From assembly GCA_963840935.1 (NCBI GenBank), contig CAWJAS010000002.1, forward strand, positions 71,333 through 135,332: a DNA stretch of 64,000 bases. Reading direction: 5' to 3'. This document shows positions 25,972 to 45,797 of the stretch, piece after piece. Position numbers and translations under genes: made by a program. Origin of the DNA: Candidatus Magasanikiibacteriota bacterium (lineage in GTDB: Bacteria; Patescibacteriota; Patescibacteriia; Magasanikbacterales; GWA2-37-8). The stretch's first letter is position 1; each line of letters starts with the position of its first letter. The notes under the pieces were generated by a model. It saw only the letters and a program-made list of their open reading frames with translations. It searched no databases and had not been told where the DNA came from.

Positions 25972-26201
25972 ATGTTTTATTATTAGTTATTATTAAAAAT
26001 TAAAAATTCTTAAATTTTGGATGTTATTAAAAAAACCCCAATACACCCATTGTGTATCGGGGTCGTGTAATTATTACAGCGACGGTTCCACCCGAAGTTT
26101 CGCTTTTATTTGTGAATTTGTAGCCATTATAAGGGTGGTACCATACTCAACCCCGACGCTCCGGTCGGGGCAAGCTGGGCTGGTCCTCATTCAAACACGG
26201 C
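25972..26201 (-). promoter_or_regulatory. thrS leader RNA with intrinsic terminator, probably a T-box riboswitch
   Basis: The minus-strand leader contains CUUCGGGUGGAACCGUCG (T-box-like GGGUGGNACC, plus 26084..26093) immediately before the terminator hairpin ccccgatacac-aatgg-gtgtattgggg and U7 (plus 26029..26062). ThrRS genes are classically T-box regulated. The specifier codon was not mapped. Confidence 0.5.
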
Positions 26202-26207
26202 ATTAAA

Positions 26208-26236
26208 AATATACAATTTTTAAATTTTTTTGTCAA
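26208..26236 (-). promoter_or_regulatory. Sigma70-type promoter for the thrS leader (TTGACA-17-TATATT on minus strand)
   Basis: The minus strand reads ttgacaaaaaaatttaaaaattgtatatt. Confidence 0.5.
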
Positions 26237-26733
26237 TTCACTTCCCCTTCGTAACCGACCGGCGGAACTTCGGTTTCTTCATTCAAAAATATCGGCCCCA
26301 CATTCACCAAAATATTATTTTCTTCATCATAAATAATTGCTTTCTTTGCTTGCATATATATTATCACTCTATTTCCGTTTTTGGCGTCAATGTAGAACGA
26401 TTGCTCTTGCTTCAAAGCTTCGGCATCTGTAATTGTGGCGACGGTCGGTTCTTCATTTTGGGGTAAAACGATTAACTTGCCGACTTTTTCCAATAAAGCG
26501 CTAACTTCTTTTTGAGCAATCGCTTTTTGGCCTTCAGCCGATGTAACCACTTCAAGCTGTTTTTTGGTTTCCATGTATTTTTTGAACATCAAACCAAAAC
26601 CAGTCGTCGCCAATATAGCAACCAGAATTAATAAAAGCAAACCCATATTTGATCTATGATGCGAATCCTTTTTGACTATATCACTTTTGGGTTCTTCCTG
26701 TCGACTAAAATTCGTAACTTTTTGAATTGGCAT
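26233..26733 (-). CDS. Small membrane-anchored hypothetical protein (166 aa), immediately downstream of the giant gene and co-oriented with it
   Basis: ORF with one TM helix (GLLLLILVAILATTGFGLMF). It lies 23 bp after the giant ORF stop. Confidence 0.5.
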   Translation of the reverse strand: MPIQKVTNFSRQEEPKSDIVKKDSHHRSNMGLLLLILVAILATTGFGLMFKKYMETKKQLEVVTSAEGQKAIAQKEVSALLEKVGKLIVLPQNEEPTVATITDAEALKQEQSFYIDAKNGNRVIIYMQAKKAIIYDEENNILVNVGPIFLNEETEVPPVGYEGEVN

Positions 26734-26756: not shown

Positions 26757-27096
26757 TTATTCAATTGGTGGTTCAGCTGGCGGTTCGGCAACCGGTTCTT
26801 CAGCCGGCGTTGGTTCCTCGACAACCGGCTCTTCCTCGACGACCGGTTCTTCGACAACAGGTTCCTCGACAACCGGCTCCTCTGTTGGCGCGGGTTCCTC
26901 GGATATTGGATCTTCAACCACTGGCTCTTCTGTAATCGGCGACTCTTCTGTCACAGGTTCTTCGACAATCGGTTCGTCCTCTGTCGCCGGTTCCTCTATC
27001 GGTGTCGGTTCTTCGACAACAGGTTCCTCGACAACCGGCTCTTCCGAAGAGGGCTCTTCAATCACCGGTTCTTCCGGAACCGGTTCAGGAACATAG
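26757..27096 (-). repeat. Tandem coding repeat (Pro/Glu/Val-rich EEPVV units) at the 3' end of the giant gene
   Basis: Periodic ggttcttc / gacaaccggctc nucleotide repeats encode ...EEPVVEEPVVEEPTPIEEP.... They generate the Gly/Ser-rich shadow ORF 26656..27096 on the plus strand. Confidence 0.7.
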
Positions 27097-30000
27097 TCAA
27101 TTTGAAGTCCGATCAGATTAACCGTACCGTCAGAAACAAACACTTTTGAATCCGTGCTTGCGCCAATAGCCTGCCAATTAAATAGAACATCAACGGACTG
27201 AATTTCACTTAACATAATCTTAAAGCCCGATGTGCTAACTTCCGATAATTTCCACTTTCCATCAAAATCAATCGGAGTAATGTTAATTATCGGGGCAATT
27301 TCGTACGGTTCGGCAAATATCACGGTTGTGGAAGCATGCCCGGCCAAAATCATACCTTGTCCAACCGTATCTTCACCAAAAGTAACATGTTTTTTGGCCG
27401 TCAAAGTACCATTGAAAATAGCAGAATCATAAATAACAAGAATGTTCGCCGTCAAACTTTCAAAAACTTCATCGATTAATTGCAGGCCAGCGCTTGAAGA
27501 AGCCAACTCACTTAATCGCAAATCAAAATCAGTCATCATGTTAGACAGGTCGACAATTGATTGGTCGGCCAAAATATCATTATTTTCCAAAATCGATACT
27601 CGACCACTCAATTCGTCAAGCATGGCTTGAGTTTCTGATAACGAAACATCCAAAACATCCACCGAATCAGTAATTAATTCAAAATCATCAGTAATATTTG
27701 TGTCAAATTCTTCTAAAATGGCGACTCGTTCTTCAATTGTTAATTCTTCTTCAACCTCTTCCTCTTCTTCAAATACTAAGGCAGGCGGACCTAATGGTTC
27801 CGAGGAATCATCTTGCCAAACACGCCAATAATCAATATCCAAATAATGCAAGGCAGTTGAATAGTTCATCAACAAGGCGGTCAATCCGACTGTCGGAACG
27901 TTGGTAGTTGATTCTCCGCAATATGTCCAATCAATGCCATTTGAAGTGTCGTTGTCAACATAAAATTTCACCGAACCGGTTCCGTCGCCATTGGACGATA
28001 CAACTTCAATTTTTGTCACTGCAAACACCGTATTATTAACAGTTTGACCGGTACATTCAACATTGGTTGAAGCGCCGGCTCTTCTGGTAACACCTCGCCA
28101 ATCGCCTGTGGCGGTGTTGTTGGTAAAATAAATACCATTTGTCGGGTCGGTGGTTTGCGCTTGCGCTCTGTCGCCAATTCCGACCCAAAAAAGAGCGGTG
28201 GCGGAATCAGCCGAAGGACGAATTTTACTCAAAATTACCGGCAAATTATTGACGTTAAATACGTTATGCGCGGTTGCTAAAGCAGAAGCATAATAGGCTA
28301 AACAACTACTTCCAGCACCCGCTTGTTGCCGGCCAATGCCATTAACTTCATTATTAATATTAGACCATGTGCAAACTGTATTTTCATCGGTTGTGAACTG
28401 TTGAAAGTCACCCCAAGCCCAATTAGTGTCAGCCCCAATATTCGCTCGATTTCTCATAAATTCTTCGCCAAAATAGGCGTTGCGTTGAATCAAGGCGCCG
28501 GTTTCCAAACTCATACCAAAATTTTGTGATAAATTTTTCGCTTCCAATAATGTTTGGCCGGTTGAACTGCTTATAATGCTCGCCATTTCTTCTTTATCAG
28601 AATAAATGGTCAATACTGAATTCGGTGTTGAAGTGCCTATGCCAATATTTCCGCTATTCAACATTGTTAATAAATTATTCCCGCCTCCATTTATTGTATC
28701 GTAAAAAGCTAAACCGGCATCGACAGGAGAATTAACCGCGGTTACATCAAGTGTGTATGCCCCGGTTTCTCCCGCATAATAACTGGTGACTACGATATTA
28801 TAGGTTGAACTGGCGTCATAAACAAAAGCTAAATATGAATTGGTACCCGTACCACCGTCGTCATCAAAATAAGTAACTGTCCCTGTGTCAGATACTACCT
28901 GCAAATACGCGTCAAAAGCCACAGATGTTAATGATACGGTCATGGACGAACCATTTGGAATACCGGGGAATATTGTGGCGATGTTGTATGCATCCATATA
29001 ACGACCGGTTCTGTTCGGATTGTCCGGGTCGGTAATATCCAAAGAACCGTTAATAGAAGTTGATGTTGGCCCAAATGAAGCGGTTGATTTAATCGCGGCC
29101 AAAGAATTCTGATTGTTTATATTATATAAAGTAGCCCATACTCTATTCCAATTACGTTCAAAATTACCCAAATCATAAGCTAAGCTTGAAGCCGGCACAA
29201 CATTTTTCATTGTTGAAGTCCCATTTACAGACAAGGTTGTGGAAGGAGTTTTTGTGCCAATTCCAACAAAACCATCACTTGTGATTCTCATCCTTTCGTT
29301 CGATGCCTGCCAGCCATCGGTCATAAAGACGATGGGGGCTCCGCTTGCTTCATTAATAATATAGGCTCCTCCAGGCGCGACCGCGTCAAACACGGCGCTG
29401 TCCGGCGGGATGCCGGCAAAACCAGGGGTAGTGGATCCATAATAACCGAGTTGCAAAACATTGGTATCACCACCGGCCTTAAGATTAAACAGGGCTACTT
29501 TTGAAGACGATGCTGTTTTTACTTCAGCCGAAACATTATTATCTTCGTCATAAACTCGTAATTTAAAATAATTAGGGTCAGTCGTTCCTATGCCGACATT
29601 ACCAATATTACTAATATACATTCCAGTGGCTGAAGAGCTGGTCATAATATTCAAAAGCGGATAGGTGGATGTGCCGGAAATAGTTAACATGGCGTTTGGA
29701 TTTTCATTGTTAATGCCTACTGTTCCGGTAGCCCCCAAAGTCAAAATATTTGTGAATAGTCCGCTATCATTTACATAATAGAAAATAAACTTATCGTCTT
29801 GTGTCGCATCACGTTTGGATAATTGCCAATATCTATTATTATTCGTGACAAAATTTAAATTAGTAGCGCCGGCAATTGTTTTTTGGAGAATTGTCATTGC
29901 CGGGCCGGAAGTCGCCGTGACTACATGCAATGGCGCGGAAGGAGTTGTCGTACCCATTCCAACCCATCCGCGACTATCAATCGCCATTCTTTCCAAGGCT

Positions 30001-33000
30001 GTCGTTGAACCGTTCGGTGTAGTGCTAAACACAATTTTACCCGGCATGCTATTCAAGGCGGGAGTCCCATCAGCTTGCCCAATAATACCGCCGGCCTTTT
30101 GCCAAGCCGAACCATCATAGCCATAAAAATCCAAACCACCAAGATTATTATTATTGGCGGTTAATGCCGGTACGGCGGTTGTCCCGCCGGAAGAGCCCAA
30201 ATTAAACATCGGGTAGCCGTTGCCGGCCACTTTAAATGAAAAATCAGAAAACGCACCTATATCATCGCTTAAAATAATTCTTTCATAGCCGGTGATGCCG
30301 GTGGCGCTCGGGTCGCCAAGAACCATTCCTCCGCCAAGATATGAAATTGCGGTGGTTGATACCGCGGTAAAATAGTCGGCCTGAAAATTTTCATCAATAG
30401 TTAAACTTCCTCCAACTTCCAAGTCGCCACTCATATACGAATCTCCAACCACTTCAAAAATCACGTCTGATGAGGTGACGCTTCCGCCAACAACAACTGC
30501 ATAAGGAGGTATTAAAGACGGATATAAAACACTTGCAGTTGTGGTAGCCCAACTTGAATCTCCTCCACCTCCGGACGGCCAAGTATTTCTGGCTACTCCC
30601 CCCAAAGTAATATAACCTGTTGCCACTAAATCAGTTGTCGTTACAGAATTAGCAACAACCAAATAATTTGCCGAGGCCAAAGTCATGGTTGTAGTCGCCA
30701 AGCTGGCAACGCCATCAACATAAAGCGACGAACTGGCAAAAATAATATCTTTAAACCAAACTGGCAAAGTGGAAGAAGTGGTCAAAACATCAAGACCATT
30801 GTGTGATACCAATTGCCAATTGGCTGTTGCGCCTCCGGCTGAAGCTAGTAAATTACCATTCCAATAAAGATCACCGGCGCTATTATATAAAGAATAAGTG
30901 GATGTGGCAGTGGCGGTGTCACCCAAATATAAACCACCATCAACGTGAAGCAAATTTAAAGGTTCGTACAAAGCCGTGCCGATACCAACATGCCCGGTAC
31001 CGGCCTGAATTGTAAACACATCATCGCCCTCAGCACCGATGGAATCATCCCATAATCGCAGGTCCAAACTACTGGTCGGCATATACCAACTCCAACCGTT
31101 GTCATAACTGCCGGAATTGACTCTGCGTATATAATTACCGGCCTCTCCGTTGCCATTTGCCACTATTGTGATGTAATTTCGAGAGCTGGTCGGGCTTGAG
31201 GACAAATCATCGCCCCAAATTTCCAAACGATCATATGGGGTTGATGTGCCAATCCCAAAACTGCCGTCATAAGTTGAAAATGCGGTATTTTGAAGATTGC
31301 CATGTCCGTTTTCAATAAAATAATCGAGTGTACCTGAGGCACCGGCAGTATCGTAACGAATCGGAAAAACATCAGCCGTTGTATTAAAGTGATTGGAAAC
31401 CAAAACTATATTGTCATTGTCGTCAGTGGCCGCGCCTAAAAATACATTACTATCAGCAAACCCCGCTCCGGCCCATGAAAATGATGTATGAGTAATTCGC
31501 GCACCTGAACTCGCACCGGAATTTGTGATATATGCCGGGAACACATTTGCAGAACCGGCGGCTATGGTGATGCCTGTCACAAAACCGGCGTCCAAATATG
31601 TGTTGGCGCTCGCACTATTATGATAAACAATTTTTATACTATTGGCAGGCGCGAAAGAATAAATCGGGAATGTAATAATCGGGTCTTTAATGGTAATCAC
31701 GCTTCCTGAATTGGTGTTATCCACATAAACCAAAGATAAATCATCAGTCCCGTCATAAGTGGTAATAACATTATCCGCACCAAAAATGTTTGCTCGCACT
31801 AAATTTGAGCCACTAATATAAAAGGCCGTATTTACACGAACACCGGCCGCGTTATTTGAACGAGTTAATTTAAATTCGCTCTGGCCCGAACTTTCAAAAG
31901 TTCCGTTATCAACATAAACAACCGCTTGAACCGCCGCGTCATTTGTAAAAGTTGCTTCGGCAATAACATTTTTTAACGTTGCCTGGCCGGAGCCAGTCAT
32001 TTCGACAGCGTAATCATTAGTATTTTTTACATCAATATCAGCTAAAGCACTTCCCGTCGCCATATCAAAAGTCACCTTGCCGTTGATTATGGTATTGCAT
32101 CCCGAACCTTGTACTTTCATGTAATCCGCCATTACAACATTTTCATTGTATGTGCCGGGTGCTATCACCACCAAATAGGGATCTTCCATGGTCGCCGATG
32201 AAGAAGCGGCGGCAATACCAGCGGCAATGGTTTTTTTGGCTTTTGCCGGAGAGGTGCCATCAAAATTATCTTTTCCACTGGTGTCAGACACATATATTGT
32301 ATTGCCCTCAGTCAAAGCGACCAGAGTTATAATTTCGGACCAAACATTTTGATTGTTGTTCAAATGTTTTACTTCAACAAGCCCATTATTAACTCTAAAA
32401 CCAAATCCGGAAGAAGCGGTTGTTGTGCCAAAATTAATGTATGGGTCAATTGCCGACAACATAATATTGCCGTAAACATCAAGTTGCGACAGCGGATTTG
32501 AGGTGTTAATGCCGACAAATCCCTCGTTTGCTCCGCTACCCTGAATAAACAATGAGCTCGAACCATATAACAAATTATTCTGAGTCATCATTCTTATGTC
32601 ACCTCCCAATGATGCCATAAACAAATCGTTCCCACCGCTAGCGGCAATACCAAAAACACTGTCGGCATTGGGGAACCCGGCAAAATTACTGCCGGTCAAA
32701 ACAATCGTTCCGCCATAGCCCGCATCATTAAAAAACTGCATTTCTGTGGATGCTCCATTCCCGGCCGATAAATTTGCCAAACGAATTCCTGAATCTGTGT
32801 TTGAAGAAAATTCAATGTCAAGAATGTGATATGAAAGCGGGTCGGCCATGCCCGGAGTTGATGTGCCAATACCAATTTTTCCTTCATTTGTAATAACCAT
32901 TCTTTCGGTGCCGGCAGACATAAATCTTATCCAATCCTCATCAGGAGATGATTCGACGGAAACAACAGTATCACCATCCGAATCTTGAATATAGGTACTG

Positions 33001-36000
33001 GTACTTCCGCCCATCACCGGCATACCATTCCAATATAATTGACCCGAATTATTATAAAGCGCGTAAGCGGTATTTGCCGGAGTACCACTAACAATATTGA
33101 TACCACCGACAACGCTCAAAGCGTTCAATGGCGTGGTGGTGCCAATACCGATAAACCCACTTGAAGCGACAAAAAGAGAGCTTGTCGGCGACCAGGCAGA
33201 TCCATCCCAATAAATAGTTTGACCAGCAAGTGTTCCATAATTTACCGGGGTCAAAATTGTTCCGTTAACCCTGTAATTACCGGTAAGATTAACATCGCCT
33301 TGAACGGTTAACTTGTGCGATGGGGTTGAGGTGCCAATACCAATACGGTCATTTGATCCGTCTACAAATAATAAATTTGAATCACCGGCGCCTTGAACAA
33401 TAAAATTATAATTTCCGCTTGAAGTATTGAACACGGCCCCGCCTTTTACAAGCATTTGGGTATTGAATCCGTCAAGCATCATGACTTTGTTATCAGTGAC
33501 ATTACTTTTTCCGTCTCCGGTATCATTATTTTGGAACGCAAAAATTAGATTGGCGTCAGCTCCGCCTCTGGCAATCGCCCATCCGCGTAAACTTGATGTT
33601 GTGCCGAAATCATTTGTATCACTGTATAAAAACAATGCCGCCCCCGCATCACGACTTCCGCTCATTGCCGATAACTTTGCCCAGCTACTAGTCGCTTGCA
33701 CGCCAAGCATAGTTTGCTCTCCAGCATTATCGTTAATAAACAATAAACCGCTGTTATCATAGTAATCTGACCGATAAGCCAATTTCGGCAATAAAGCTTG
33801 CCCGGTGTCAACTTTAATAATGTCTTGGTCGATATTATCATGCCGGCCGAACAGCACCGTTCCTTCTTCTTCAGCTAAAGCGTAAAAATATACATTATCA
33901 GGATTGTTTATATTAATATCAGCACTAGAAAAAGCTCCATCACTTGAAGAGATGTTAATTGTTGAATCATCATTTTGATCGATATTTAAAGTTAAGGCTT
34001 TTTGAAGATAACTGGCTGTAACTTTTGTAATAGAATTATTATTGCTAACAATATTGTTATCCAACCCCCACATATTCGAATAGCGAATTTCCGCATATGA
34101 ATCATCGCCGGCAATATATAAACCCGTACCACTATCATTATATGAACCAAACTCACTGCCTACCATATAAAATTCCGAGGCTCCCGTAGTACTGTCAACA
34201 TAGGCGTAATAGGTATCTGATTCTTCCATATAAGACGCTTCGATTTGCAGGATGCCACCATTATCAATATATACCCCTGCATTACCAATATCATATAAAT
34301 CCATGTGAAAAGCATCCACGAGGTTTGTAACAGATAAATCAATACCTCGATTAACGCTTAAAATTGATACTCGTTCCAACTCCATCCAATTAACGCCTTC
34401 GCTAGTAATATTTATTGCATCACAACCGGCGGTATTTTTGAATCCTGTGGTATCCGAACCATCGATTGAAAAATTAGACATTGAAAATTTAACAGTGTCA
34501 GTAGTGAAATTAATGTCAAAAACCGGATCTCCGGCAGTCACCAATGAATCACCTGGAACAATCACAACTCCGCTTTGCGAAATACCATGAATACCTTTGA
34601 TTTTTGGATTGGTAATTTCCAAAGTAGAAGTCACTTCGTATTCGCCCGGATAAATATGTATAACAACATCGTATGTTGAAGTATTCGCATAATCAATCGC
34701 GTCCATCAGATTGTCAAAATCCCCGCCTTCTTTGGCAACATTGATGGTGTGATTAATTTTGCCATAAACATCCGCCCAATCACCACCCAAATGTTTAAAT
34801 TGAATCCGACCGTTATTATCTCTAAAACCATAACCTACCGTGCCGGTCGCCGTGTCAAAATTTAAATATCTATCCTCGCCCGACAAAATAATATCGCCAT
34901 AAACATCCAATTTCGCCAATGGTGAAGAAGTACCGATACCTACAAAACCATTAGATTCAATTCTCATTCTCTCAACCGAGGTAGTCGGGCCCTCGTCGCC
35001 ACCGACATAAAAAATTATATTATTAGTATCTCCAACAGCGGCAAGAGCAATGCCCCTCGCCATGTCAAAAGTAGCTAAGGTTAAATAACCAGCCATGTTG
35101 GTATAGCCATCCTGACTAAAATTACTTGAAGGCATCATTAAAGCGCCACTAACATCATCCACTTGCAAAGTTATCATCACCGCTGAACTGGCGCTATTTA
35201 CCGTATTTTCAAATCGAGCTTCCGCCCAATCATCTATACTATGAACAAAATGTAAGGGGGCCAGCGGGGTGGAAGTGCCAATGCCTAAATAACCATTGGT
35301 ATTATCCCAATACAACGAACTTGTTCCTGTAATCGATGAAGCGCTGTCCCAAAAAGAAAGCTGACCGATCGAACCGGAACCGGTCACTCCTCCGATTCCC
35401 GCGGTTAAAGATAACCAACTTGAGCCGATATAACCAATAAAATCAGAACCATCAAAAGCAATGGTTCCGGCGGTCGATGTGGGAGTGGTTGTGGCACCAA
35501 TATTTATTCCACCGGCAACAGTTAGCATTTCAAAAGTTGAACTGGTGCCAATTGCCACTCGTCCGTCATTTTCGATTCGCATTCTTTCTGTGTCCATGGT
35601 CGGCGGACCATAGCCACCGGCATAAAAAATAATATTTCCGCTAGAACCGGCAAGCAAGGCAAGTCCATTGCCACTGGCGCCTGGAAATCCTGAAACTAAA
35701 GCGGTGTATCCGGCTAAATTTGTTAAACCATAATCGTTAAAATTTTCACCCGCGACGCCAATGCCACCACCATAATTGCCAACTTTAAACTGCATCAATT
35801 CAGTCGAACTCGCTCCGTTATTTATATTTTCAAAAGTTACAAGCGGACCATTATAATTTTCATTATGAACCACATGTAAATTATACCCCGGTGTTGTTGT
35901 GCCAATACCTACACGTCCGCCAAAATAATTGGTTGAACTGGCGCCATCCGAATAAATATTAAAATTGGAAGTAGTGGCAAAATTTTGTTCTTCAATGTAT

Positions 36001-37745
36001 AGACCATACAAATTACCAATAGTCCCTGAGGCGCTATTGCTTGTCGGATTATTTATTCTCGCACCATAAGCATTATTAATAAATCCATCGTCAATAGTGA
36101 TGTTTGTCATTAATCCGGCGGCATTTCCAATTGTACCTCCACCTATACCATTTTCAATCATTGCCAAAACACCGGCTGCCATATTTATGGTACCGGAATA
36201 GGCAGAATTCTCTATCCCATTATTCACCTGTCCGGCTGCGCCTACAGCAAAATTTATACTGCCGGTCGCGCTGGCTAATTCCGCGACCGATAAAGAACCA
36301 ACGGCCGCTCCAACAACTCCGGAACCATTGTGTATTGCTTGTAACAATGTTCCAGCGAGCAAATCAAAACTGGTAGTGCTATTTTCATTGGTCGTCAAAG
36401 AGATCAAGGAATTGATAGTGGATGATGAGTCAGCTGTCGGCAACAAATCAACAATAAAGGCGTGCGCAGGAAAAAATTCAAAATTTGAAAGATCTGTGTA
36501 TTGTTTATAGGAAACTAAAATAGGAGCATCGGTTGGGAATAAATAAGCATCACCCAAACGTAAATTACTTGCTGATGTAGTGGCCAATGTGGAAGTGCCT
36601 GTAACAGATAGGTCATTATTAATGGCCAGCGCGCCTGTCATGGTATCCCCCGTAATATTCACCCAATTATCTGTTCCCGTAGCCATAAAACTAGAGCTGG
36701 AAAATCCGCTTCCGAGCAAGCTTGTTCCGTTGAACCAAACAAATTCGTATGGCGAAAAAGATGAGGCATTTGTACCCCCATTGGCAATCGGTAAAACTCC
36801 CGATACATCAGAAGTCAAATCAATGGTAGTAGTGCTCCAAACTCCGGCGGTTAATCTGACAAGACCATCCCAGCCGGAAGTATCCTGACCTGTCCCGCCA
36901 TATGCCGGTGCGATAACCGAGCCATTCCAAGTGCCCGAGGCGATCGTGCCAAAATATGAATTACCAACTACAGTTAAATTGCTCGTCAAATAGAGATTTG
37001 TGCCTGTGGCACTGGTCCAAGAAATATCGGTAAAAGAAGAAGCGCCGGAAATAATCAAATTACTTATTGTGGCAGTGGCAAAAGTGGAATTACCGGAAAC
37101 ATAAAGATTGCCCGCGATACTCGATGTGGCAGTGGTTGATGTTAAATTTATTGATGCGCCTGAATAAACTCCCGCGCCAATATCAAAACTCAAATCATCG
37201 CCAAGTGCCAAGAGCTGACCGGCAGTTGCCGTTGAAGTGGCGTGGAATCCATCCACTCTGTGTGAATTCAAAGCATACGGATGGGCGTTCAATTTAACTC
37301 TGGGGCTTGATTCCGAATTGCTTTCAATTTTCACTCCCAAATAATATGTCCCGCTGGAAAAATCCAGATAACTCGGGAAGCCCGTGCAATCGCCCAAAGT
37401 TAAAGTGAAATATCCTTGTGCGTCTGGCAAAATTTCTGCGCACGCCCCACTGCTTTGGTCATAAGTTTCTTTCCAAAGTAAAGGTCCGTTTTGATCGGGC
37501 GTGTCGCCGGAAGAACCATTTGAGATGTGATTGTAAATTGAAAACTGTATGGTTGTGGAAACGGCAATTGGCGAGCCCAAATTATCACGCAATCTCGCTT
37601 GATAATTTATTGAATTAGGGATGGCGATTGCTTTTTCAGCTAAAAAAAAGATAAGAAAAACAAAAAATAAAAGCAATATTTTTTTTACTTCCTTTACTTT
37701 GTCCTTAAAATTAGGACCAAAATTGTATTTCGCCCTCCAGTGCAT
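26757..37745 (-). CDS. Giant (3662 aa) secreted cell-surface protein
   Basis: An uninterrupted 10,989-nt ORF with a signal peptide/TM at the N-terminus (KKILLLFFVFLIFFLAEKAIA). Many short G-[FRK]-[IV]-GIGT-[ST]-x-P repeats (GNVGIGTTDP, GFVGIGTKTP, GNIGIGTSTP, RIGIGTSTPSHKLTVQGDV, GFIGIGTTTP...) resemble phage tail-fibre / surface-fibre repeats. There are beta-helix-like blocks (NFSIDGSDTTGF...GIDLSVTNL...DLYDIGNAGVYIDNGGILQIEASYMEE), a PPC-like block (GTVTYFDDDGGTGTNSYLAFVYDASSTYNIVVTSYYAGETGAYTLDV) and a C-terminal (P-V/E-E-E-P-V)n low-complexity tail. Confidence 0.8.
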   Translation of the reverse strand: MHWRAKYNFGPNFKDKVKEVKKILLLFFVFLIFFLAEKAIAIPNSINYQARLRDNLGSPIAVSTTIQFSIYNHISNGSSGDTPDQNGPLLWKETYDQSSGACAEILPDAQGYFTLTLGDCTGFPSYLDFSSGTYYLGVKIESNSESSPRVKLNAHPYALNSHRVDGFHATSTATAGQLLALGDDLSFDIGAGVYSGASINLTSTTATSSIAGNLYVSGNSTFATATISNLIISGASSFTDISWTSATGTNLYLTSNLTVVGNSYFGTIASGTWNGSVIAPAYGGTGQDTSGWDGLVRLTAGVWSTTTIDLTSDVSGVLPIANGGTNASSFSPYEFVWFNGTSLLGSGFSSSSFMATGTDNWVNITGDTMTGALAINNDLSVTGTSTLATTSASNLRLGDAYLFPTDAPILVSYKQYTDLSNFEFFPAHAFIVDLLPTADSSSTINSLISLTTNENSTTSFDLLAGTLLQAIHNGSGVVGAAVGSLSVAELASATGSINFAVGAAGQVNNGIENSAYSGTINMAAGVLAMIENGIGGGTIGNAAGLMTNITIDDGFINNAYGARINNPTSNSASGTIGNLYGLYIEEQNFATTSNFNIYSDGASSTNYFGGRVGIGTTTPGYNLHVVHNENYNGPLVTFENINNGASSTELMQFKVGNYGGGIGVAGENFNDYGLTNLAGYTALVSGFPGASGNGLALLAGSSGNIIFYAGGYGPPTMDTERMRIENDGRVAIGTSSTFEMLTVAGGINIGATTTPTSTAGTIAFDGSDFIGYIGSSWLSLTAGIGGVTGSGSIGQLSFWDSASSITGTSSLYWDNTNGYLGIGTSTPLAPLHFVHSIDDWAEARFENTVNSASSAVMITLQVDDVSGALMMPSSNFSQDGYTNMAGYLTLATFDMARGIALAAVGDTNNIIFYVGGDEGPTTSVERMRIESNGFVGIGTSSPLAKLDVYGDIILSGEDRYLNFDTATGTVGYGFRDNNGRIQFKHLGGDWADVYGKINHTINVAKEGGDFDNLMDAIDYANTSTYDVVIHIYPGEYEVTSTLEITNPKIKGIHGISQSGVVIVPGDSLVTAGDPVFDINFTTDTVKFSMSNFSIDGSDTTGFKNTAGCDAINITSEGVNWMELERVSILSVNRGIDLSVTNLVDAFHMDLYDIGNAGVYIDNGGILQIEASYMEESDTYYAYVDSTTGASEFYMVGSEFGSYNDSGTGLYIAGDDSYAEIRYSNMWGLDNNIVSNNNSITKVTASYLQKALTLNIDQNDDSTINISSSDGAFSSADININNPDNVYFYALAEEEGTVLFGRHDNIDQDIIKVDTGQALLPKLAYRSDYYDNSGLLFINDNAGEQTMLGVQATSSWAKLSAMSGSRDAGAALFLYSDTNDFGTTSSLRGWAIARGGADANLIFAFQNNDTGDGKSNVTDNKVMMLDGFNTQMLVKGGAVFNTSSGNYNFIVQGAGDSNLLFVDGSNDRIGIGTSTPSHKLTVQGDVNLTGNYRVNGTILTPVNYGTLAGQTIYWDGSAWSPTSSLFVASSGFIGIGTTTPLNALSVVGGINIVSGTPANTAYALYNNSGQLYWNGMPVMGGSTSTYIQDSDGDTVVSVESSPDEDWIRFMSAGTERMVITNEGKIGIGTSTPGMADPLSYHILDIEFSSNTDSGIRLANLSAGNGASTEMQFFNDAGYGGTIVLTGSNFAGFPNADSVFGIAASGGNDLFMASLGGDIRMMTQNNLLYGSSSLFIQGSGANEGFVGINTSNPLSQLDVYGNIMLSAIDPYINFGTTTASSGFGFRVNNGLVEVKHLNNNQNVWSEIITLVALTEGNTIYVSDTSGKDNFDGTSPAKAKKTIAAGIAAASSSATMEDPYLVVIAPGTYNENVVMADYMKVQGSGCNTIINGKVTFDMATGSALADIDVKNTNDYAVEMTGSGQATLKNVIAEATFTNDAAVQAVVYVDNGTFESSGQSEFKLTRSNNAAGVRVNTAFYISGSNLVRANIFGADNVITTYDGTDDLSLVYVDNTNSGSVITIKDPIITFPIYSFAPANSIKIVYHNSASANTYLDAGFVTGITIAAGSANVFPAYITNSGASSGARITHTSFSWAGAGFADSNVFLGAATDDNDNIVLVSNHFNTTADVFPIRYDTAGASGTLDYFIENGHGNLQNTAFSTYDGSFGIGTSTPYDRLEIWGDDLSSSPTSSRNYITIVANGNGEAGNYIRRVNSGSYDNGWSWYMPTSSLDLRLWDDSIGAEGDDVFTIQAGTGHVGIGTALYEPLNLLHVDGGLYLGDTATATSTYSLYNSAGDLYWNGNLLASAGGATANWQLVSHNGLDVLTTSSTLPVWFKDIIFASSSLYVDGVASLATTTMTLASANYLVVANSVTTTDLVATGYITLGGVARNTWPSGGGGDSSWATTTASVLYPSLIPPYAVVVGGSVTSSDVIFEVVGDSYMSGDLEVGGSLTIDENFQADYFTAVSTTAISYLGGGMVLGDPSATGITGYERIILSDDIGAFSDFSFKVAGNGYPMFNLGSSGGTTAVPALTANNNNLGGLDFYGYDGSAWQKAGGIIGQADGTPALNSMPGKIVFSTTPNGSTTALERMAIDSRGWVGMGTTTPSAPLHVVTATSGPAMTILQKTIAGATNLNFVTNNNRYWQLSKRDATQDDKFIFYYVNDSGLFTNILTLGATGTVGINNENPNAMLTISGTSTYPLLNIMTSSSATGMYISNIGNVGIGTTDPNYFKLRVYDEDNNVSAEVKTASSSKVALFNLKAGGDTNVLQLGYYGSTTPGFAGIPPDSAVFDAVAPGGAYIINEASGAPIVFMTDGWQASNERMRITSDGFVGIGTKTPSTTLSVNGTSTMKNVVPASSLAYDLGNFERNWNRVWATLYNINNQNSLAAIKSTASFGPTSTSINGSLDITDPDNPNRTGRYMDAYNIATIFPGIPNGSSMTVSLTSVAFDAYLQVVSDTGTVTYFDDDGGTGTNSYLAFVYDASSTYNIVVTSYYAGETGAYTLDVTAVNSPVDAGLAFYDTINGGGNNLLTMLNSGNIGIGTSTPNSVLTIYSDKEEMASIISSSTGQTLLEAKNLSQNFGMSLETGALIQRNAYFGEEFMRNRANIGADTNWAWGDFQQFTTDENTVCTWSNINNEVNGIGRQQAGAGSSCLAYYASALATAHNVFNVNNLPVILSKIRPSADSATALFWVGIGDRAQAQTTDPTNGIYFTNNTATGDWRGVTRRAGASTNVECTGQTVNNTVFAVTKIEVVSSNGDGTGSVKFYVDNDTSNGIDWTYCGESTTNVPTVGLTALLMNYSTALHYLDIDYWRVWQDDSSEPLGPPALVFEEEEEVEEELTIEERVAILEEFDTNITDDFELITDSVDVLDVSLSETQAMLDELSGRVSILENNDILADQSIVDLSNMMTDFDLRLSELASSSAGLQLIDEVFESLTANILVIYDSAIFNGTLTAKKHVTFGEDTVGQGMILAGHASTTVIFAEPYEIAPIINITPIDFDGKWKLSEVSTSGFKIMLSEIQSVDVLFNWQAIGASTDSKVFVSDGTVNLIGLQIDYVPEPVPEEPVIEEPSSEEPVVEEPVVEEPTPIEEPATEDEPIVEEPVTEESPITEEPVVEDPISEEPAPTEEPVVEEPVVEEPVVEEEPVVEEPTPAEEPVAEPPAEPPIE

Positions 37746-37846
37746 AAAATTGTATCTTTATTATAGCACAAAATTGAATTTATTTGTTGCTATTAAAATA
37801 AAAAACTGTGGATAAAATCCACAGCTCAAAAAAACTAAAAAAAGAA

Positions 37847-38566
37847 TCAAGGATTGACGAGTGCGGTTATAGTAATCATGCCGGAATATACCCCTGTCAT
37901 TTGTGACACTGGGGCTGAAACACGATAACCGATAACAGTATTAGACAAGCCAAAATTACATGAGGCACAATTCATAAATTGTTGCATTAACAATGGAAAA
38001 CCGGCATATTTTGCGGTTCCCGAAGTGTCGCTTGCTCCCCACCAAGCACTATCGTAATATGAATCGGAGCCGGTTTGCCAAACTCTAAAACTCAAATTAT
38101 CACCCGGCGAACTGGTGGCATTGCCGGAACCCGTCGGATTCCAATCAATCTCATCCGGAAAAGCAACATCCGGAGAAGACGAGCCATTCATGTTCAAAGT
38201 CGAAGTGGTGTCTTCGCGATTTACTGATAAATTATAGCCATTATAAGCGCCGACCATATCAACTGTGGCTGTTGAAAAAGCGAATGAAGGCACAAGCGGA
38301 ACAATAATACCAAAATCAACGCTGGTTGCAATAGTTAACGTCATCATTCCAAATTCAATAACAAGACCGTGATCCAAAATAAAATTTGAACTGGCGGAAC
38401 GGCCTACCGCCGGGTCGCCAACACCGCCCTTTATTTCAAAACCGGATGATGTGGCGTCGTGATATGTGGAATTGTAAACTTCCCTATCGGCGGTATTTGC
38501 GTGAGCTATTGATACGGTCAATAAAAAAATAATTCCTACTATCAAAAAATATCTTTTATGAAACAT
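37847..38566 (-). CDS. Secreted protein (239 aa), paralog of 38723..39355. Possibly WxL-like, low confidence
   Basis: A signal peptide. It shares TSTLNxNG(S/T)S(S/T)PDVxFPD..........GxNLSFR...TG(S/T)D and a C-terminal SGVYxGxITxTAxxNP with its divergently transcribed neighbour. Confidence 0.5.
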   Translation of the reverse strand: MFHKRYFLIVGIIFLLTVSIAHANTADREVYNSTYHDATSSGFEIKGGVGDPAVGRSASSNFILDHGLVIEFGMMTLTIATSVDFGIIVPLVPSFAFSTATVDMVGAYNGYNLSVNREDTTSTLNMNGSSSPDVAFPDEIDWNPTGSGNATSSPGDNLSFRVWQTGSDSYYDSAWWGASDTSGTAKYAGFPLLMQQFMNCASCNFGLSNTVIGYRVSAPVSQMTGVYSGMITITALVNP

Positions 38567-38722: not shown

Positions 38723-39355
38723 ATGAGGAGGATACTCTCATCATTAGTGTTAGTCGCGTTATTTTGCGCAACAATTGGCATTTTGGGTTTAGCCAACCTA
38801 AAACCGGCGATTGCCGCAAGCGATTCTGACACTCAAACAATTATCTTGACGGTTACGTCAACGATAACTTTAACTTTGGCTACCACTACCGTGAATATGG
38901 GTACTCTAACCCCGGGAGTGCCAATTTTTGCCGGTACTTCATTAACGGTTACGACCAATGATTACAACGGTTGGAATTTGCAAGTAAGAAGAGATGACGC
39001 CACTTCAACGCTTAATTTGAACGGAACCTCAACACCTGATGTTACTTTTCCGGACGCCACTGCTTGGACTTATGCCACGCCAAATTCGAGCGCCACTCCG
39101 GGAGCTAATTTATCTTTCAGATTAATGGATACAGGTACTGACGTGGCTTTGGTTTCAACCACTCTTTGGGGCGCGGATGCAGGCACAAAACTTTGGGCCG
39201 GTTTCCCAACATCCAACCAACAGGTAACTGGAATTGGCAGTTATGTGGGCGCAACGCAAAATGTTGCCTATGAATTCAGAGCCGATGCTCCGGGAACTCA
39301 GCAGTCTGGTGTTTATTACGGCGATATTACCTTTACCGCGATTACAAATCCATAA
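38723..39355 (+). CDS. Secreted protein (210 aa), paralog of 37847..38566
   Basis: Signal peptide MRRILSSLVLVALFCATIGILGLA. The conserved blocks are listed under the 37847..38566 paralog. Confidence 0.5.
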   Translation: MRRILSSLVLVALFCATIGILGLANLKPAIAASDSDTQTIILTVTSTITLTLATTTVNMGTLTPGVPIFAGTSLTVTTNDYNGWNLQVRRDDATSTLNLNGTSTPDVTFPDATAWTYATPNSSATPGANLSFRLMDTGTDVALVSTTLWGADAGTKLWAGFPTSNQQVTGIGSYVGATQNVAYEFRADAPGTQQSGVYYGDITFTAITNP

Positions 39356-39364
39356 TTTAATTTT

Positions 39365-40312
39365 ATGCGGAGAGCAAAACTCACAATCGGCATTGCCCTC
39401 CTTTTAGCCGGAATAATTAGTTTAGTAAAAATAGAAGCTGCCTTTGCGCAGCTTTCTATTTCTACTTACCCACTTTCGGTTAAAGGGCAAATAGACCCAG
39501 GACAAACATTCGAGGGAACGGTCAATATTATTAATTCAAGCGAAAATGAATCAGTAAAAATTCGTTTGGAAAAAGAAAATTTAATGGGGGGAGCCGAGGG
39601 GGCGGTTGAACTCTTAGGGGAAGTTGATACGGGCTGGGGAATTTCTTCCTGGGTCAAATTTGAAGATGATAGTGATTTTATTTTAGAACCCAAAGAAAGA
39701 CGAGCTGTTAATTTTTCAATTGAAGTGCCTCTTGACGCTCAACCGGGCGGACATTTTGGCGCCGTACTTTTCCGAGCTTTACCCGCGGATGAAAAAGAAA
39801 ATACCGAAAGTGGCATAAGCGTCAGTGGAAGAGTCGGGTCTGTACTTTTGTTTGAAGTAACTGGGGACATAAACAAAGGCGCTCACATATCATGGATTGA
39901 TGTGCCAAAGTTTTTGAGCCATGGTCCGGTTGATGTTAGATTCAAATTAAAAAATGATGGTAATTCATATTTCACGCCCATTGGTAATGTTACGTACAAA
40001 AATCTTTGGATGAAAAATGAAGCAGAATTTTATAATCCCGGAAAAGCTGAAACTGATTTAAACAAGCCGGGAGTAGTATTCCCCGGTTATGACCGAACAT
40101 ACGCATCAAAATGGGACAAAAAATACATGTTCGGCCCTGTCAAAATTACTATTAACGCTCAAATGGAGGAAGGTGGCCCGGAAATCGCTTCAAAATCAAT
40201 TATTATCTGGGTTTTCCCATGGCAAGAAGCTTTAATTATTTTGGCGGTAATTTTGTTGTTATGGATCATTACCAGGGCATTTAAAACCAAATACAAAATT
40301 GTTAAAGTTTAA
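39365..40312 (+). CDS. Cell-surface protein with N-terminal signal peptide and C-terminal transmembrane anchor (315 aa)
   Basis: Signal peptide, beta-rich body, and a C-terminal ALIILAVILLLWIITRAFKTKYKIVKV anchor. The architecture resembles DUF916-type anchored proteins of WxL loci, but that link is an inference. Confidence 0.5.
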   Translation: MRRAKLTIGIALLLAGIISLVKIEAAFAQLSISTYPLSVKGQIDPGQTFEGTVNIINSSENESVKIRLEKENLMGGAEGAVELLGEVDTGWGISSWVKFEDDSDFILEPKERRAVNFSIEVPLDAQPGGHFGAVLFRALPADEKENTESGISVSGRVGSVLLFEVTGDINKGAHISWIDVPKFLSHGPVDVRFKLKNDGNSYFTPIGNVTYKNLWMKNEAEFYNPGKAETDLNKPGVVFPGYDRTYASKWDKKYMFGPVKITINAQMEEGGPEIASKSIIIWVFPWQEALIILAVILLLWIITRAFKTKYKIVKV

Positions 40313-40331
40313 CACGGCCGACACAATAATC

Positions 40332-41348
40332 ATGAAAAAATTAATCAGTATTTTTTCAAATTTTATTGAAATGCGGATTTTAGTTTACATCGGCATTTTT
40401 ATTGTTGGCATTGTTTTGCCAATTGCTGTGTTTGGTGTTACTTCACAACAAAATATAAATATCCAAGTCAGTTCATCAGTTCCATATAACCATTGTGTTG
40501 ACGGAATAAAAAACTACGATGAAACCGGCGTGGATTGCGGGGGTACCATGTGTTCCGCTTGTAGCGGAGGTGGAGGCGGGGGCGGAGGTGGAGGCGGAAT
40601 TACACTCTATTCTTCGGTCGCTTTTTCTGGAAAAACTGCTCCCGGTTCATCAGTAAAAATTCTTAAAGGTGGAATTTTAACCTCAAGTGTTTTATCAAAT
40701 CTTAACGGTGATTTTTCTGCTTCTATCAGATATCTTACCGCAGGAACATACAATTTTATAATATATTATGAGGATGCAACGGGTAAAAAAAGCGCCTCTG
40801 TAACTTTTAATATAACTGTCAACCAAAATCAAAATATTACTATAAATAATATTTTACTACCGCCAACTTTATCTATTGATAAGACGCAAATAAAAGAGAA
40901 CGAAACAATTAAAATATTTGGCCAAAGTGCGCCAAATTCTCAAATCACGATTTATCTTACGCCTTTGATCGGAAACCCGACGACAACCCTTAACACTAAC
41001 GCTAATCAAATCGGGGTGTATGAATATCTTTTTAACGGCCAATTACAATTAGGCCAATACGCGGTCAAAGCAAAAGCAAAACTCGGGGAACTGACAAGCG
41101 AATATTCTTTACTTCAAAATTTTTCCGTCGGAACTTCAACCATAGAAAAACCCACAGGCATTTGCCCACAAAAAGGCGACGTTAATTATGATTGCCGAGT
41201 CAACTTAGTTGATTTTTCAATTACCGCTTATTGGTTCAGACGAACAATTAGTCCTGAATTTATTATTATTGAAAATGACCAATTAAGCGGGGACAGTAAG
41301 ATAGACTTGGTTGATTTTTCTATTCTCGCTTATTATTGGACCGGTTAA
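40332..41348 (+). CDS. Membrane-anchored protein with poly-Gly linker and a C-terminal dockerin-like duplicated Ca-binding repeat
   Basis: An N-terminal TM and a G11 run (40561..40600). The C-terminus carries two dockerin-type segments, GDVNYDCRVNLVDFSITAYWF and GDSKIDLVDFSILAYYW. The start is taken at MKKLISIF (40332). Confidence 0.55.
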   Translation: MKKLISIFSNFIEMRILVYIGIFIVGIVLPIAVFGVTSQQNINIQVSSSVPYNHCVDGIKNYDETGVDCGGTMCSACSGGGGGGGGGGGITLYSSVAFSGKTAPGSSVKILKGGILTSSVLSNLNGDFSASIRYLTAGTYNFIIYYEDATGKKSASVTFNITVNQNQNITINNILLPPTLSIDKTQIKENETIKIFGQSAPNSQITIYLTPLIGNPTTTLNTNANQIGVYEYLFNGQLQLGQYAVKAKAKLGELTSEYSLLQNFSVGTSTIEKPTGICPQKGDVNYDCRVNLVDFSITAYWFRRTISPEFIIIENDQLSGDSKIDLVDFSILAYYWTG

Positions 41349-41352
41349 AAAT

Positions 41353-42252
41353 ATGAAAAAATCTTTTTTATTTTTTGTTTTTATAATTTCCGCTTTATTA
41401 TTTTTTTCAACCCCCGCGAAAGCGGCTGATTTTTTATTTAATCCTCATAATATTGAGATTAGCAGAAATGATGAAATAAAAATTGATTTTTTTGTTGACG
41501 CTAATGAAAATCCCATAAACGCCATAAGCGGACAACTTATTATACCGACTGATTATATTTTTATTAAAAATATTATTATCGGCGAAAGCGGTGTTAATTT
41601 ATGGATTGAGAAACCGGAACTGAATAATAATATTATTAATTTTTCCGGTATTGTACCGAACGGTTTTGTCGGCAAAATTAATATTTTTTCCTTCATAATA
41701 AAGGCAAAAAAAATTGGTATTGTTCAAATTGACCAGAGTAATTTTCGCGCTCTTATTAATAACGGCATCGGTACCGATGATAATGTAGACGCCCCAAAAC
41801 TCACCATCAACATAATCCAGGAAACCGCTGAAATACCGACCGAAATTATTTTGGAAGATACGGAACCGCCGGATATTTTTCAAATTGAAATTATAAAGGA
41901 CGACCTTTTGTTTGATGGGAAATATGCCTTAATTTTTCATACCGAAGATAAGCAAAGTGGCATTAGTCATTATAAAATTTTGGAGCAAAGACAGTATGAA
42001 TTTTTTGGGATTAAATACCGCTTCGGCCAATGGAAAACGGCAAACAGTCCATATTTACTCAGCGACCAAAAATTAAAAAGTTTAATAAAAGTTGTCGCTA
42101 TTGATAATCTTAACAATGAACGGGATTCTCTTTTACCCGCAATGAATCCAATAAAATGGTATGAAAATATTATTTTTTGGAGTATAATATTAATAACGCT
42201 GTTTTTTGGCGTGATATTTTGCATATATGTTAAACGGAGGGTTAAAAAATAA
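41353..42252 (+). CDS. Cohesin-like domain protein with C-terminal TM anchor
   Basis: A signal peptide (MKKSFLFFVFIISALLFFSTPAKA), then a ~140-aa beta-sandwich segment (NIEISRNDEIKIDFFVDANENPINAISGQLIIPTDYIF...FSGIVPNGFVGKINIFSFIIKAKKIGIVQID) of cohesin type, and a C-terminal hydrophobic anchor. Confidence 0.45.
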   Translation: MKKSFLFFVFIISALLFFSTPAKAADFLFNPHNIEISRNDEIKIDFFVDANENPINAISGQLIIPTDYIFIKNIIIGESGVNLWIEKPELNNNIINFSGIVPNGFVGKINIFSFIIKAKKIGIVQIDQSNFRALINNGIGTDDNVDAPKLTINIIQETAEIPTEIILEDTEPPDIFQIEIIKDDLLFDGKYALIFHTEDKQSGISHYKILEQRQYEFFGIKYRFGQWKTANSPYLLSDQKLKSLIKVVAIDNLNNERDSLLPAMNPIKWYENIIFWSIILITLFFGVIFCIYVKRRVKK

Positions 42253-43069: not shown

Positions 43070-43072
43070 AAT

Positions 43073-44044: not shown

Positions 44045-44046
44045 TT

Positions 44047-45756: not shown

Positions 45757-45797
45757 TGTGATATAATATAAATAGAATAAAACGCTAAAATAAACAT

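Follow-up and report, generated by a model that had tools for sequence, protein, structure and literature searches.

A giant gene located at 26757..37745 on the reverse strand of a 64,000-nucleotide stretch of Candidatus Magasanikiibacteriota DNA (assembly GCA_963840935.1, contig CAWJAS010000002.1, positions 71,333 to 135,332; hereafter the window) probably encodes, with a likelihood that we estimate at about 65%, a Sec-exported trimeric adhesin of the mosaic adhesive trimer (MAT) type, similar to phage tail fibres and related to the prey-binding fibres described in the predator Bdellovibrio bacteriovorus, which would be displayed on the Patescibacteria cell surface and bind glycans on the surface of the host. 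The analysis shows the homologies of the protein, the order of its domains, its conservation in other genomes and the affiliation of its relatives with the Candidate Phyla Radiation (CPR), whereas trimerization, surface display, polarity, length and the binding of glycans or host are inferred. The gene is real: the list of open reading frames (ORFs) and the translation confirmed the uninterrupted frame reported in a preliminary description of the window, with an ATG start, no internal stop codons and a product of 3662 residues, and collinear orthologues (P0038, P0040 and L009) were found in other assemblies. An exact-sequence look-up of the protein returned no matching record. The protein is rich in Gly, Ser, Thr, Ala and Asn and contains 8 Cys residues in total; all of its regions mentioned below lie, like the gene, on the reverse strand.

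Repeats resembling the capping loops of Bdellovibrio MATs

The tetrapeptide G[IM]GT occurs 12 times along the protein (at residues 613, 821, 936, 1469, 1533, 1625, 2164, 2254, 2596, 2718, 2828, and 3035) versus a mean of 0.38 and a maximum of 3 in 2000 shuffles of its residues. Ten of these copies extend to the pattern G[IM]GT-x-x-P-x(2-5)-L-x-[VFI], and two degenerate copies, AIGT at residue 731 and GINT at residue 1745, bring the number of modules to about 14. The preliminary description had counted at least 12 fibre-type repeats of the form G-x-[IV]-GIGT-[ST]-x-P, a number that holds for the shorter motif but not for the strict pattern, which is matched only 6 times.

Most of the modules fall into three blocks that would constitute the shaft of the fibre. 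Block 1 (34776..35945, residues 601-990) includes the motifs at residues 613, 821 and 936 and the degenerate copy at 731, its internal repeats share 38-55% amino acid identity, and it matches the tail-fibre family phrog_18345. Block 2 (32346..33875, residues 1291-1800) likewise contains internal repeats, with motifs at residues 1469, 1533 and 1625 and the degenerate copy at 1745. Block 3 (29136..31271, residues 2159-2870) carries the motifs at residues 2164, 2254, 2596, 2718 and 2828 and accounts for the match to phrog_9942. The two PHROG tail-fibre families matched the giant protein with E values of 6.9e-35 (phrog_9942) and 4.5e-22, which, together with matches to MAT-fibre sequences of the PDB, support the earlier proposal that the repeats are of the tail-fibre type.

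The PDB matches were obtained in two regions. Residues 2517-2619, within block 3, matched two entries of Bd1334 (8OML, 8.9e-08; 8ON4, 8.1e-06) and one of Bd2439 (8OL4, 0.015), the alignment spanning '...ERMxI...G.VGIGT', and a three-sequence profile of residues 985-2160 gave Bd2133 (8OND, 4.3e-05) as its sole match, which lies within the module part that corresponds to block 2. The Bd1334, Bd2439, and Bd2133 constructs are intertwined trimeric β-helix subdomains, the segment of Bd1334 matched here corresponds to the entire trimeric β-helix (T869-Q1011), and a recurrent capping loop, V-G-G/N-pi-x-x-P-x-x-x-L, has been described in MAT fibres (PMC10769870). Because of the matches to the MAT constructs and of the published loop motif, the GIGT-P...L-x-V repeat is interpreted as the loop that caps each fibre module of the MAT/S74 type. 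At the level of sequence, therefore, the giant protein has the β-helix shaft with capping-loop motif that is typical of MATs, and by analogy with these constructs the fibre is very probably a homotrimer.

A MAT-like N-terminal domain preceded by a predicted signal peptide

The only hydrophobic stretch of the giant protein lies at its N-terminal end, where hydrophobic 19-residue windows start exclusively at residues 16-28 (approximately residues 16-46). This stretch belongs to a predicted signal peptide (37623..37745, residues 1-41) with a basic N-region and an AIA/IP junction, and the AxA pattern predicts cleavage after AIA and before IPNSINYQ. The region that follows (36966..37622) is a MAT_N-like domain with a core at residues ~42-170, conservation up to residue ~260 and a Cys102/Cys120 pair. 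Residues 1-260 matched the NCBIfam model NF053851 (Bdello_MAT_N) with an E value of 1.6e-4 and 21.5 bits, the curated cut-off being 60, and aligned with positions 2-45 of the 162 in the model. The same model was matched by 45 of 59 short homologues of the N-domain, with a best E value of 3.3e-14, which is evidence, by transitivity between sequences, for a superfamily-level homology to Bdello_MAT_N but not for membership in the Bdellovibrio subfamily. When the N-domain was used in a full HMMER scan, 3849 representative proteins were recovered at E ≤ 1e-3, of which 136 reached E ≤ 1e-10 and 58 reached E ≤ 1e-30.

Putative binding domains and tail at the C-terminal end

The distal part of the protein begins with a pre-peptidase C-terminal (PPC) β-sandwich domain (28734..29081, residues ~2889-3004). 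The own segment of the giant protein reached only 8.7 bits with the Pfam family PF04151 (E = 4.4, cut-off 25.9); 15 of 22 aligned homologous segments matched this family (E ≤ 0.01, best 2.1e-12), and the proteins retrieved with the region by phmmer were PF04151-bearing proteins. An AlphaFold2 (AF2) model of the segment had a predicted local distance difference test score (pLDDT) above 90, and Foldseek related it, with template modelling (TM) scores of 0.57-0.65 overall, to the collagenase PPC domain 5SV5 (4.4e-04, TM 0.63), the collagen-binding domain of ColG 1NQD (TM 0.57) and PliG 4DZG (7.5e-05, TM 0.64). The PPC β-sandwich can thus be assigned with confidence from the predicted fold and transitive homology, and the PPC-like segment proposed in the preliminary description stands.

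The PPC domain is followed by a conserved head domain (27846..28568, residues ~3060-3300) that is common to the relatives P0002, P0003 (a partial protein of Ca. Dojkabacteria), P0004, and P0006, with 31-46% identity. Four of the 8 Cys residues of the giant protein (3125, 3148, 3231, and 3276) are invariant, and all four lie in this domain. The AF2 model of the head is in part a β-sandwich, with pLDDT values of 63-91 at residues 3169-3284 and below 50 at residues 3007-3167. The low number of Cys residues and the invariant ones in the head are hallmarks of extracellular proteins and, as judged from sequence, the Cys pairs and the signal peptide suggest export. An acidic linker and an α-helical, coiled-coil-like region (27441..27845, residues ~3301-3435), for which AF2 predicted helices at residues ~3337-3432 with low confidence and which is missing from the L009 orthologue, connects the head with an H-type-lectin-like domain (27156..27383, residues ~3455-3530). 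This last domain was modelled with a pLDDT of about 90, and PF09458 (H_lectin) was matched by 21 of 29 aligned homologues (E ≤ 0.1, best 1.3e-05). The own segment of the giant protein did not match PF09458, and a profile of the H_lectin-like domain gave no matches in the PDB. Both families, PF09458 (Helix pomatia agglutinin, discoidin) and PF04151 (C-terminal domains of collagenases and subtilases), were recovered by transitive homology; unlike in the classic H-type lectins and PPC proteins, the domains found here reside inside a fibre and their own sequences fall under the Pfam thresholds.

The H-type-lectin-like domain is C-terminal in 41 of 184 collected relatives, and it is mostly followed in them by a low-complexity tail of 80-140 residues that is acidic, Pro- or Thr-rich, and varied in composition. 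In the giant protein this position is occupied by an acidic Glu/Pro/Val tail (26760..27113, residues 3545-3662) recognized by its composition, its hydropathy and 15-nucleotide DNA repeats. Its 118 residues comprise 40 Glu, 28 Pro, and 20 Val, as anticipated by the preliminary description of an acidic Pro-rich C-terminus. Neither an LP.[TSA]G motif anywhere in the protein nor a hydrophobic segment at its C-terminus was found, and anchoring through LPxTG or a C-terminal transmembrane segment was consequently ruled out. No Pfam match to Peptidase_S74 was observed in the whole protein, in 500-residue slices or in short segments. A BFVD fold search with the C-terminal model yielded mostly multi-domain noise of high root-mean-square deviation, with phage tail-fibre proteins among the matches.

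Relatives of the giant protein form a mosaic family

The three collinear orthologues differ from the giant protein by insertions and deletions of whole blocks. P0038 (3364 residues) is 84% identical at residues 1-393 and 83% at residues 750-3554 (84% over 2829 residues); P0040 (2879 residues) shows about 50% identity at residues 931-2454 and 3023-3635; and the 3047-residue ORF of L009, a 563-kb Patescibacteria contig, shares about 55% identity at residues 21-628, 933-2724, and 2665-3315 and 35% at residues 3458-3613. The least conserved part with respect to P0038 comprises residues ~394-900 (~35046-36566), where identity drops to 30-35% or the alignment is gapped, and portions of the same part are also missing from P0040 and L009, so that this region appears, from the aligned sequences, to be a hot spot of module gain and loss. 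It overlaps the proximal fibre region (35946..36965, residues 261-600), which belongs to no recognized family, gave no Pfam match and is partly absent from or divergent in P0038.

Beyond the orthologues, the N-terminal ~250 residues (~13-260) recur in proteins of 560-900 residues with different distal parts, and the C-terminal ~500 residues (3060-3576) recur in proteins of 1070-1113 residues. On this sequence evidence, the family shows the mosaic of distal domains on a common N-terminus and shaft that is characteristic of MATs. Pfam searches with ten relatives gave nothing significant. Among 147 newly retrieved top matches of the N-domain the median length was 910 residues, 28 proteins had at least 2000 and 12 at least 3000 residues, and the longest one had 5516. 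Giant genes were also found side by side at related loci. In L004 (JGI 3300037045, a 1.39-Mb contig) genes for 2950 and 3782 residues flank that of the fibre relative P0025, and in L005 (ENA ERZ1757541, a 542-kb contig) a 2387-residue gene follows that of the fibre relative P0026. The 2950-residue protein carries the same H-lectin-like domain and tail, and a faint match to the Pfam family PF26696 (PTL_trimer) was recorded on two proteins of the L004 and L005 arrays. P0025 itself (753 residues, L004:6001-8262) has the same N-domain and, at its C-terminus, a domain rich in Cys, Asn and Thr (…YTANSNDCAGYTTNSNTSLGAFWAYDPNGGGMGWLNNCQVTRKISCC), which we take to be reminiscent of variable regions with a C-type-lectin fold, among them the targets of diversity-generating retroelements.

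The records that contain relatives are labelled Ca. Magasanikiibacteriota (70% identity in the N-domain), Uhrbacteria, Dojkabacteria, and 'Patescibacteria group'. The nearest relatives thus come from Patescibacteria/CPR genomes, and the assignment of the giant gene to CPR, already implied in the preliminary description, is well supported by sequence comparison. A Patescibacteria-type fibre N-domain was also present in two records titled 'uncultured Gammaproteobacteria bacterium', L010 (CAYOXC010000005.1) and L013 (OZ246408.1, a 1.0-Mb chromosome), the first of which additionally carries the syntenic cluster of secreted proteins and PilB-type ATPase described below, with an ATPase 82% identical; judging from genome size and gene content, the Gammaproteobacteria labels of these records are probably wrong.

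Proposed function of the giant fibre and comparison with MATs

According to the function that we favour, the signal peptide would direct the export of the fibre, and the MAT_N-like domain would dock it to the envelope of the producing cell, with the N-terminus proximal to the surface on which the fibre is displayed. About 14 intertwined β-helix modules would form the shaft, and a capping loop of the form G-x-[IV]-G-I-G-T-x-x-P-x-x-x-L-x-V would close each of them. Modules of 100-135 residues extend about 60 Å in Bd3182 and Bd2133 (PMC10769870), and a shaft scaled from these Bdellovibrio modules would have a length of the order of 100 nm, comparable to the width of a CPR cell. The inserts of the shaft (possibly pectin-lyase-fold β-helices), the PPC domain, the disulfide-bonded head and the H-type-lectin-like domain would offer several carbohydrate- or surface-binding sites that recognize and hold the surface of the host cell, and the acidic Pro-rich tail would be a disordered appendage common to most members of the family.

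The proposed fibre resembles the MATs of Bdellovibrio bacteriovorus (Bd1334, Bd2133, and Bd2439, among others; Caulton et al. 2024, PMC10769870; NF053851) in the succession of a signal peptide and a conserved N-domain, in the shaft modules with capping loops (V-G-x-G...P...L) and sequence matches to three constructs of known crystal structure, in C-terminal domains that are, in the giant protein, putatively lectin-like and in a family-wide combination of common N-termini with distal parts that differ. The fibre lacks an S74 chaperone, like the NS74 subgroup of MATs, and its producer shares with Bdellovibrio a life that depends on attachment to other bacteria. In contrast, the giant protein, with 3662 residues, is about 3.5 times longer than the five NS74 constructs resolved at the C-terminus (Bd1334, Bd2133, Bd2439, Bd2734, and Bd2740), which have ~840-1150 residues, and it is distinguished from MATs by its large inserts, PPC domain, four-Cys head, helical linker, H-type-lectin-like end and acidic Pro-rich tail. 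It is encoded, moreover, in a monoderm-like CPR bacterium next to a conserved partner locus. The homology to the Bdellovibrio MATs, the MAT_N-like, four-Cys head and H-type-lectin-like domains and the conserved gene neighbourhood had gone unnoticed in the preliminary description.

Several observations weigh against the assignment to the MAT type. Pfam searches with the whole protein, ten 500-residue slices and ten short segments gave nothing significant, and the own N-domain of the protein scores far under the cut-off of the Bdellovibrio-trained model. For the shaft and inserts, AF2 gave a poor model, computed as a monomer. Because CPR cells have no outer membrane, the N-domain must dock to another partner than in Bdellovibrio. 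Finally, the lectin-like domain and tail at the C-terminus are common to the family and not its variable part, unlike the 'variable tip' known from Bdellovibrio MATs, which makes the proposed polarity of the fibre less certain.

Alternative functions of the giant gene

The conserved termini bear on a different function, in which the protein would be a structural, S-layer-like fibre of the envelope (for cohesion, or as a sheath or coat) within a WxL/csc-type surface complex rather than an adhesin for host recognition. Conservation at both ends of the family is what a structural scaffold would show, the acidic tail could contact the wall, and the gene lies in a neighbourhood of secreted proteins. 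Directly upstream of the giant gene, on the same strand, a conserved neighbour encodes a secreted protein of 239 residues (37847..38566), which occupies the same position in L006 (62% identity), L007 and L008 (54%), and L009 (55%) and has no match in Pfam. It is followed by a divergent cluster of secreted and membrane proteins (38723-46946, forward strand) that is syntenic in L006, L009, and L010 and codes for a paralogue of the 239-residue protein, proteins with Big_13 and cohesin domains, a transmembrane protein and a T2SSE/PilB-type ATPase (3.1e-122). One protein of the cluster showed a sub-threshold match to the peptidoglycan-binding domain of WxL-interacting proteins (PF06030), with E values of 0.013, 1.1e-4 and 9.7e-5 in three orthologues. 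Presumably the cluster resembles the csc/WxL cell-surface-complex loci of Gram-positive bacteria, although the Pfam WxL model was not matched. The 239-residue protein and its paralogue were considered as WxL-domain proteins on account of a GWNL/GYNL motif that we presume to be characteristic, and, as Pfam gave no WxL match, this assignment is no more than a lead. On the other hand, modules of the lectin-like, PPC and tail-fibre kinds typically occur in proteins that recognize ligands, the mosaic family varies greatly in length and tip content, as would be expected from a diversifying recognition, and prey glycans are what the Bdellovibrio MATs, the closest characterized relatives, bind (PMC10769870). 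A structural role is for these reasons rather unlikely.

Less likely still is that the fibre acts mainly as a carrier of exo-enzymes, adhesion being secondary, with β-helix inserts that erode the capsule or wall of the host as depolymerases or esterases. Two inserts interrupt the shaft, insert 1 (33876..34763, residues ~995-1290) and the β-rich insert 2 (31272..32333, residues ~1805-2158), the latter conserved in P0038, P0040 and L009. The AF2 monomer model of residues 985-2160 had a mean pLDDT of 37.7, with values of 56-81 reached only by residues ~995-1165, where a strand and a helix precede many short strands, and values below 50 in insert 2. The nine best Foldseek matches of the insert model were all right-handed β-helix proteins, with E values of 0.014-0.08 and TM scores of at most 0.33, and the matches comprised the Klebsiella phage depolymerase Depo32, other tailspikes, pectin methylesterases and PL6 lyases, which is what the enzymatic function would predict. 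According to its title, a preprint (10.1101/2023.11.21.568195) reportedly connects giant genes in predatory bacteria with the degradation of cell walls, and we take the N-terminal motifs of both inserts to be like the start of pectin-lyase-fold enzymes. Nevertheless, every one of these Foldseek E values is at least 0.014 and was obtained on a low-confidence model, no sequence match to the inserts was found in Pfam, the PDB or PHROG, and no catalytic residues were identified. Sequence relatives of the inserts were limited to the orthologues: a word-indexed search with a chimeric query of both inserts returned 0 homologues, and phmmer of each insert against the PDB produced only noise. The pectate-lyase-type β-helices of the preliminary description are consequently left with the weak structural matches but with no support at the sequence level; a β-helix fold is plausible for insert 1, on the strength of its model, and possible for insert 2.

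That the gene is instead a tail-fibre gene of a phage or prophage integrated in the chromosome is very improbable. The PHROG tail-fibre families were the strongest library matches of the protein, the BFVD matches include phage proteins, and the fibre is indeed like the tail fibres and tailspikes of phages (T5 pb1, the stalk of the K1F endosialidase, Klebsiella depolymerase tailspikes; PHROG 9942 and 18345) in its presumably intertwined, trimeric β-helix shaft modules, in the exchange of receptor-binding parts and, according to the models, possibly in its right-handed β-helix domains. However, the protein starts with a Sec signal peptide and not with a virion-attachment N-terminus, Peptidase_S74 was not detected, and the neighbours scanned included no genes for phage structure or replication. 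The genes downstream of the fibre gene code for ThrRS, MiaB and MiaA, and the locus therefore belongs to a cellular chromosome; these housekeeping genes and the secreted-protein cluster that is syntenic in several Patescibacteria genomes make up the flanks. Fibres of this kind are cellular in the precedent of the MATs (PMC10769870). The signal peptide and the synteny with cellular genes led to the rejection of a prophage tail fibre.

Repeats that were collapsed or chimeric in the assembly were named in the preliminary description as what would refute the giant ORF. Although the protein is repeat-rich, such an artefact is unlikely in the extreme, because the GIGT modules (62-79% nucleotide identity over 34 nucleotides, 30-55% amino acid identity) are too divergent to be expected to collapse and independent sequences from other assemblies are collinear across almost the full length. 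Repetition at the DNA level is confined to the C-terminal tail (a 15-nucleotide tandem unit and one 39-nucleotide pair, 97% identity), and misassembly is conceivable only for the copy number of this tail.

Genes and other elements adjacent to the fibre gene

A small gene (26233..26733, reverse strand) lies 23 bp downstream of the stop codon of the fibre gene, as previously described, and encodes a 166-residue membrane protein with a single hydrophobic helix; it is probably cotranscribed with the fibre gene. Homologues are located directly after the fibre genes of P0002 (42% identity, 3e-20) and P0004 (36%, 3e-17), and paralogues were found in L001 (11366-11815 and ~12108-12335), L003 (~5318-5548, 7130-7882, and 11619-12353) and L014 (~5683-5901). 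The family has the conserved C-terminal motif PT[IV]AT[IV]xD...FY..A.NGD[KR]V[IF]IY...KAIIY and recurs, often in multiple copies, beside fibre genes at some Patescibacteria loci. No homologue was present in the ~1.6 kb that follow the orthologue in L009, which weakens a strict pairing of both genes, and the L006 sequence ends inside the fibre gene; the association of the fibre with the small membrane protein is thus loose.

A consensus scan located two terminator-like hairpins on the reverse strand, one downstream of the small membrane-protein gene (26034..26064), with a 13-bp stem and a T run, and another between the gene for the 239-residue protein and the fibre gene (37803..37827); both are predictions from the consensus. 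Upstream of the miaA and miaB genes, two further genes of the forward strand code for large predicted envelope proteins, an 857-residue DUF4012 protein (15596-18169, 2.9e-26) and a 635-residue DUF11 protein (18199-20106, 3.5e-08). The segment 56001-58000 has a GC content of 0.50 compared with ~0.40 in the rest of the window, and it includes overlapping ORFs on both strands at 56457-57047. A Rfam scan of the 64-kb window revealed no family except tRNAs.

Implications for host recognition in CPR bacteria

Giant surface proteins are already known in CPR bacteria. In the part of the Vampirococcus lugosii study that we consulted, giant membrane proteins of 1392-4163 residues are presumed to act in host recognition on a fibrous cell surface (PMC8080830), and they are like the giant fibre in size class and lineage. 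The same part of that study describes them with WD40, PKD, DUF11, integrin and fibronectin domains, unlike the giant fibre, and reports no link to MATs or tail fibres (PMC8080830). Within the limited range of literature searched, no link between a giant CPR protein and the MAT family was found; judging from the sequences compared here, the present fibre is set apart from known MATs by its size, its inserts, its combination of PPC, head and H-lectin-like domains, the conservation of its C-terminal module and tail, and its occurrence in a CPR genome with a conserved partner locus.

Adhesins are required for epibiotic growth, and multiple adhesins have been linked to host attachment of CPR bacteria (PMC10633639). 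Host recognition by CPR bacteria is nonetheless largely unexplained beyond type IV pili and unnamed 'adhesins', and the results presented here connect a giant CPR protein, presumably exposed at the surface, with a family of characterized structure, that of the Bdellovibrio MATs, which makes it a candidate for the grip on the host. The domain map offers three units that can be expressed (PPC domain, four-Cys head and H-lectin-like end) and tracked across genomes as possible markers of host range. Because the family appears to be large, with 3849 representative proteins that carry the N-domain, the lead reaches beyond one genome. As a tentative extension, Patescibacteria may carry a large and previously unrecognized expansion of MAT-type fibres, often giant (2000-5500 residues), at a conserved locus that also encodes a small secreted partner, a PilB-like ATPase and wall-binding proteins of the WxL-interacting-like kind, all of which would together constitute a dedicated apparatus for host capture. 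If this were true, predators and epibionts of unrelated phyla would share one phage-derived solution for recognizing bacteria, and the mosaic inserts and tips of the fibres would encode the host range.

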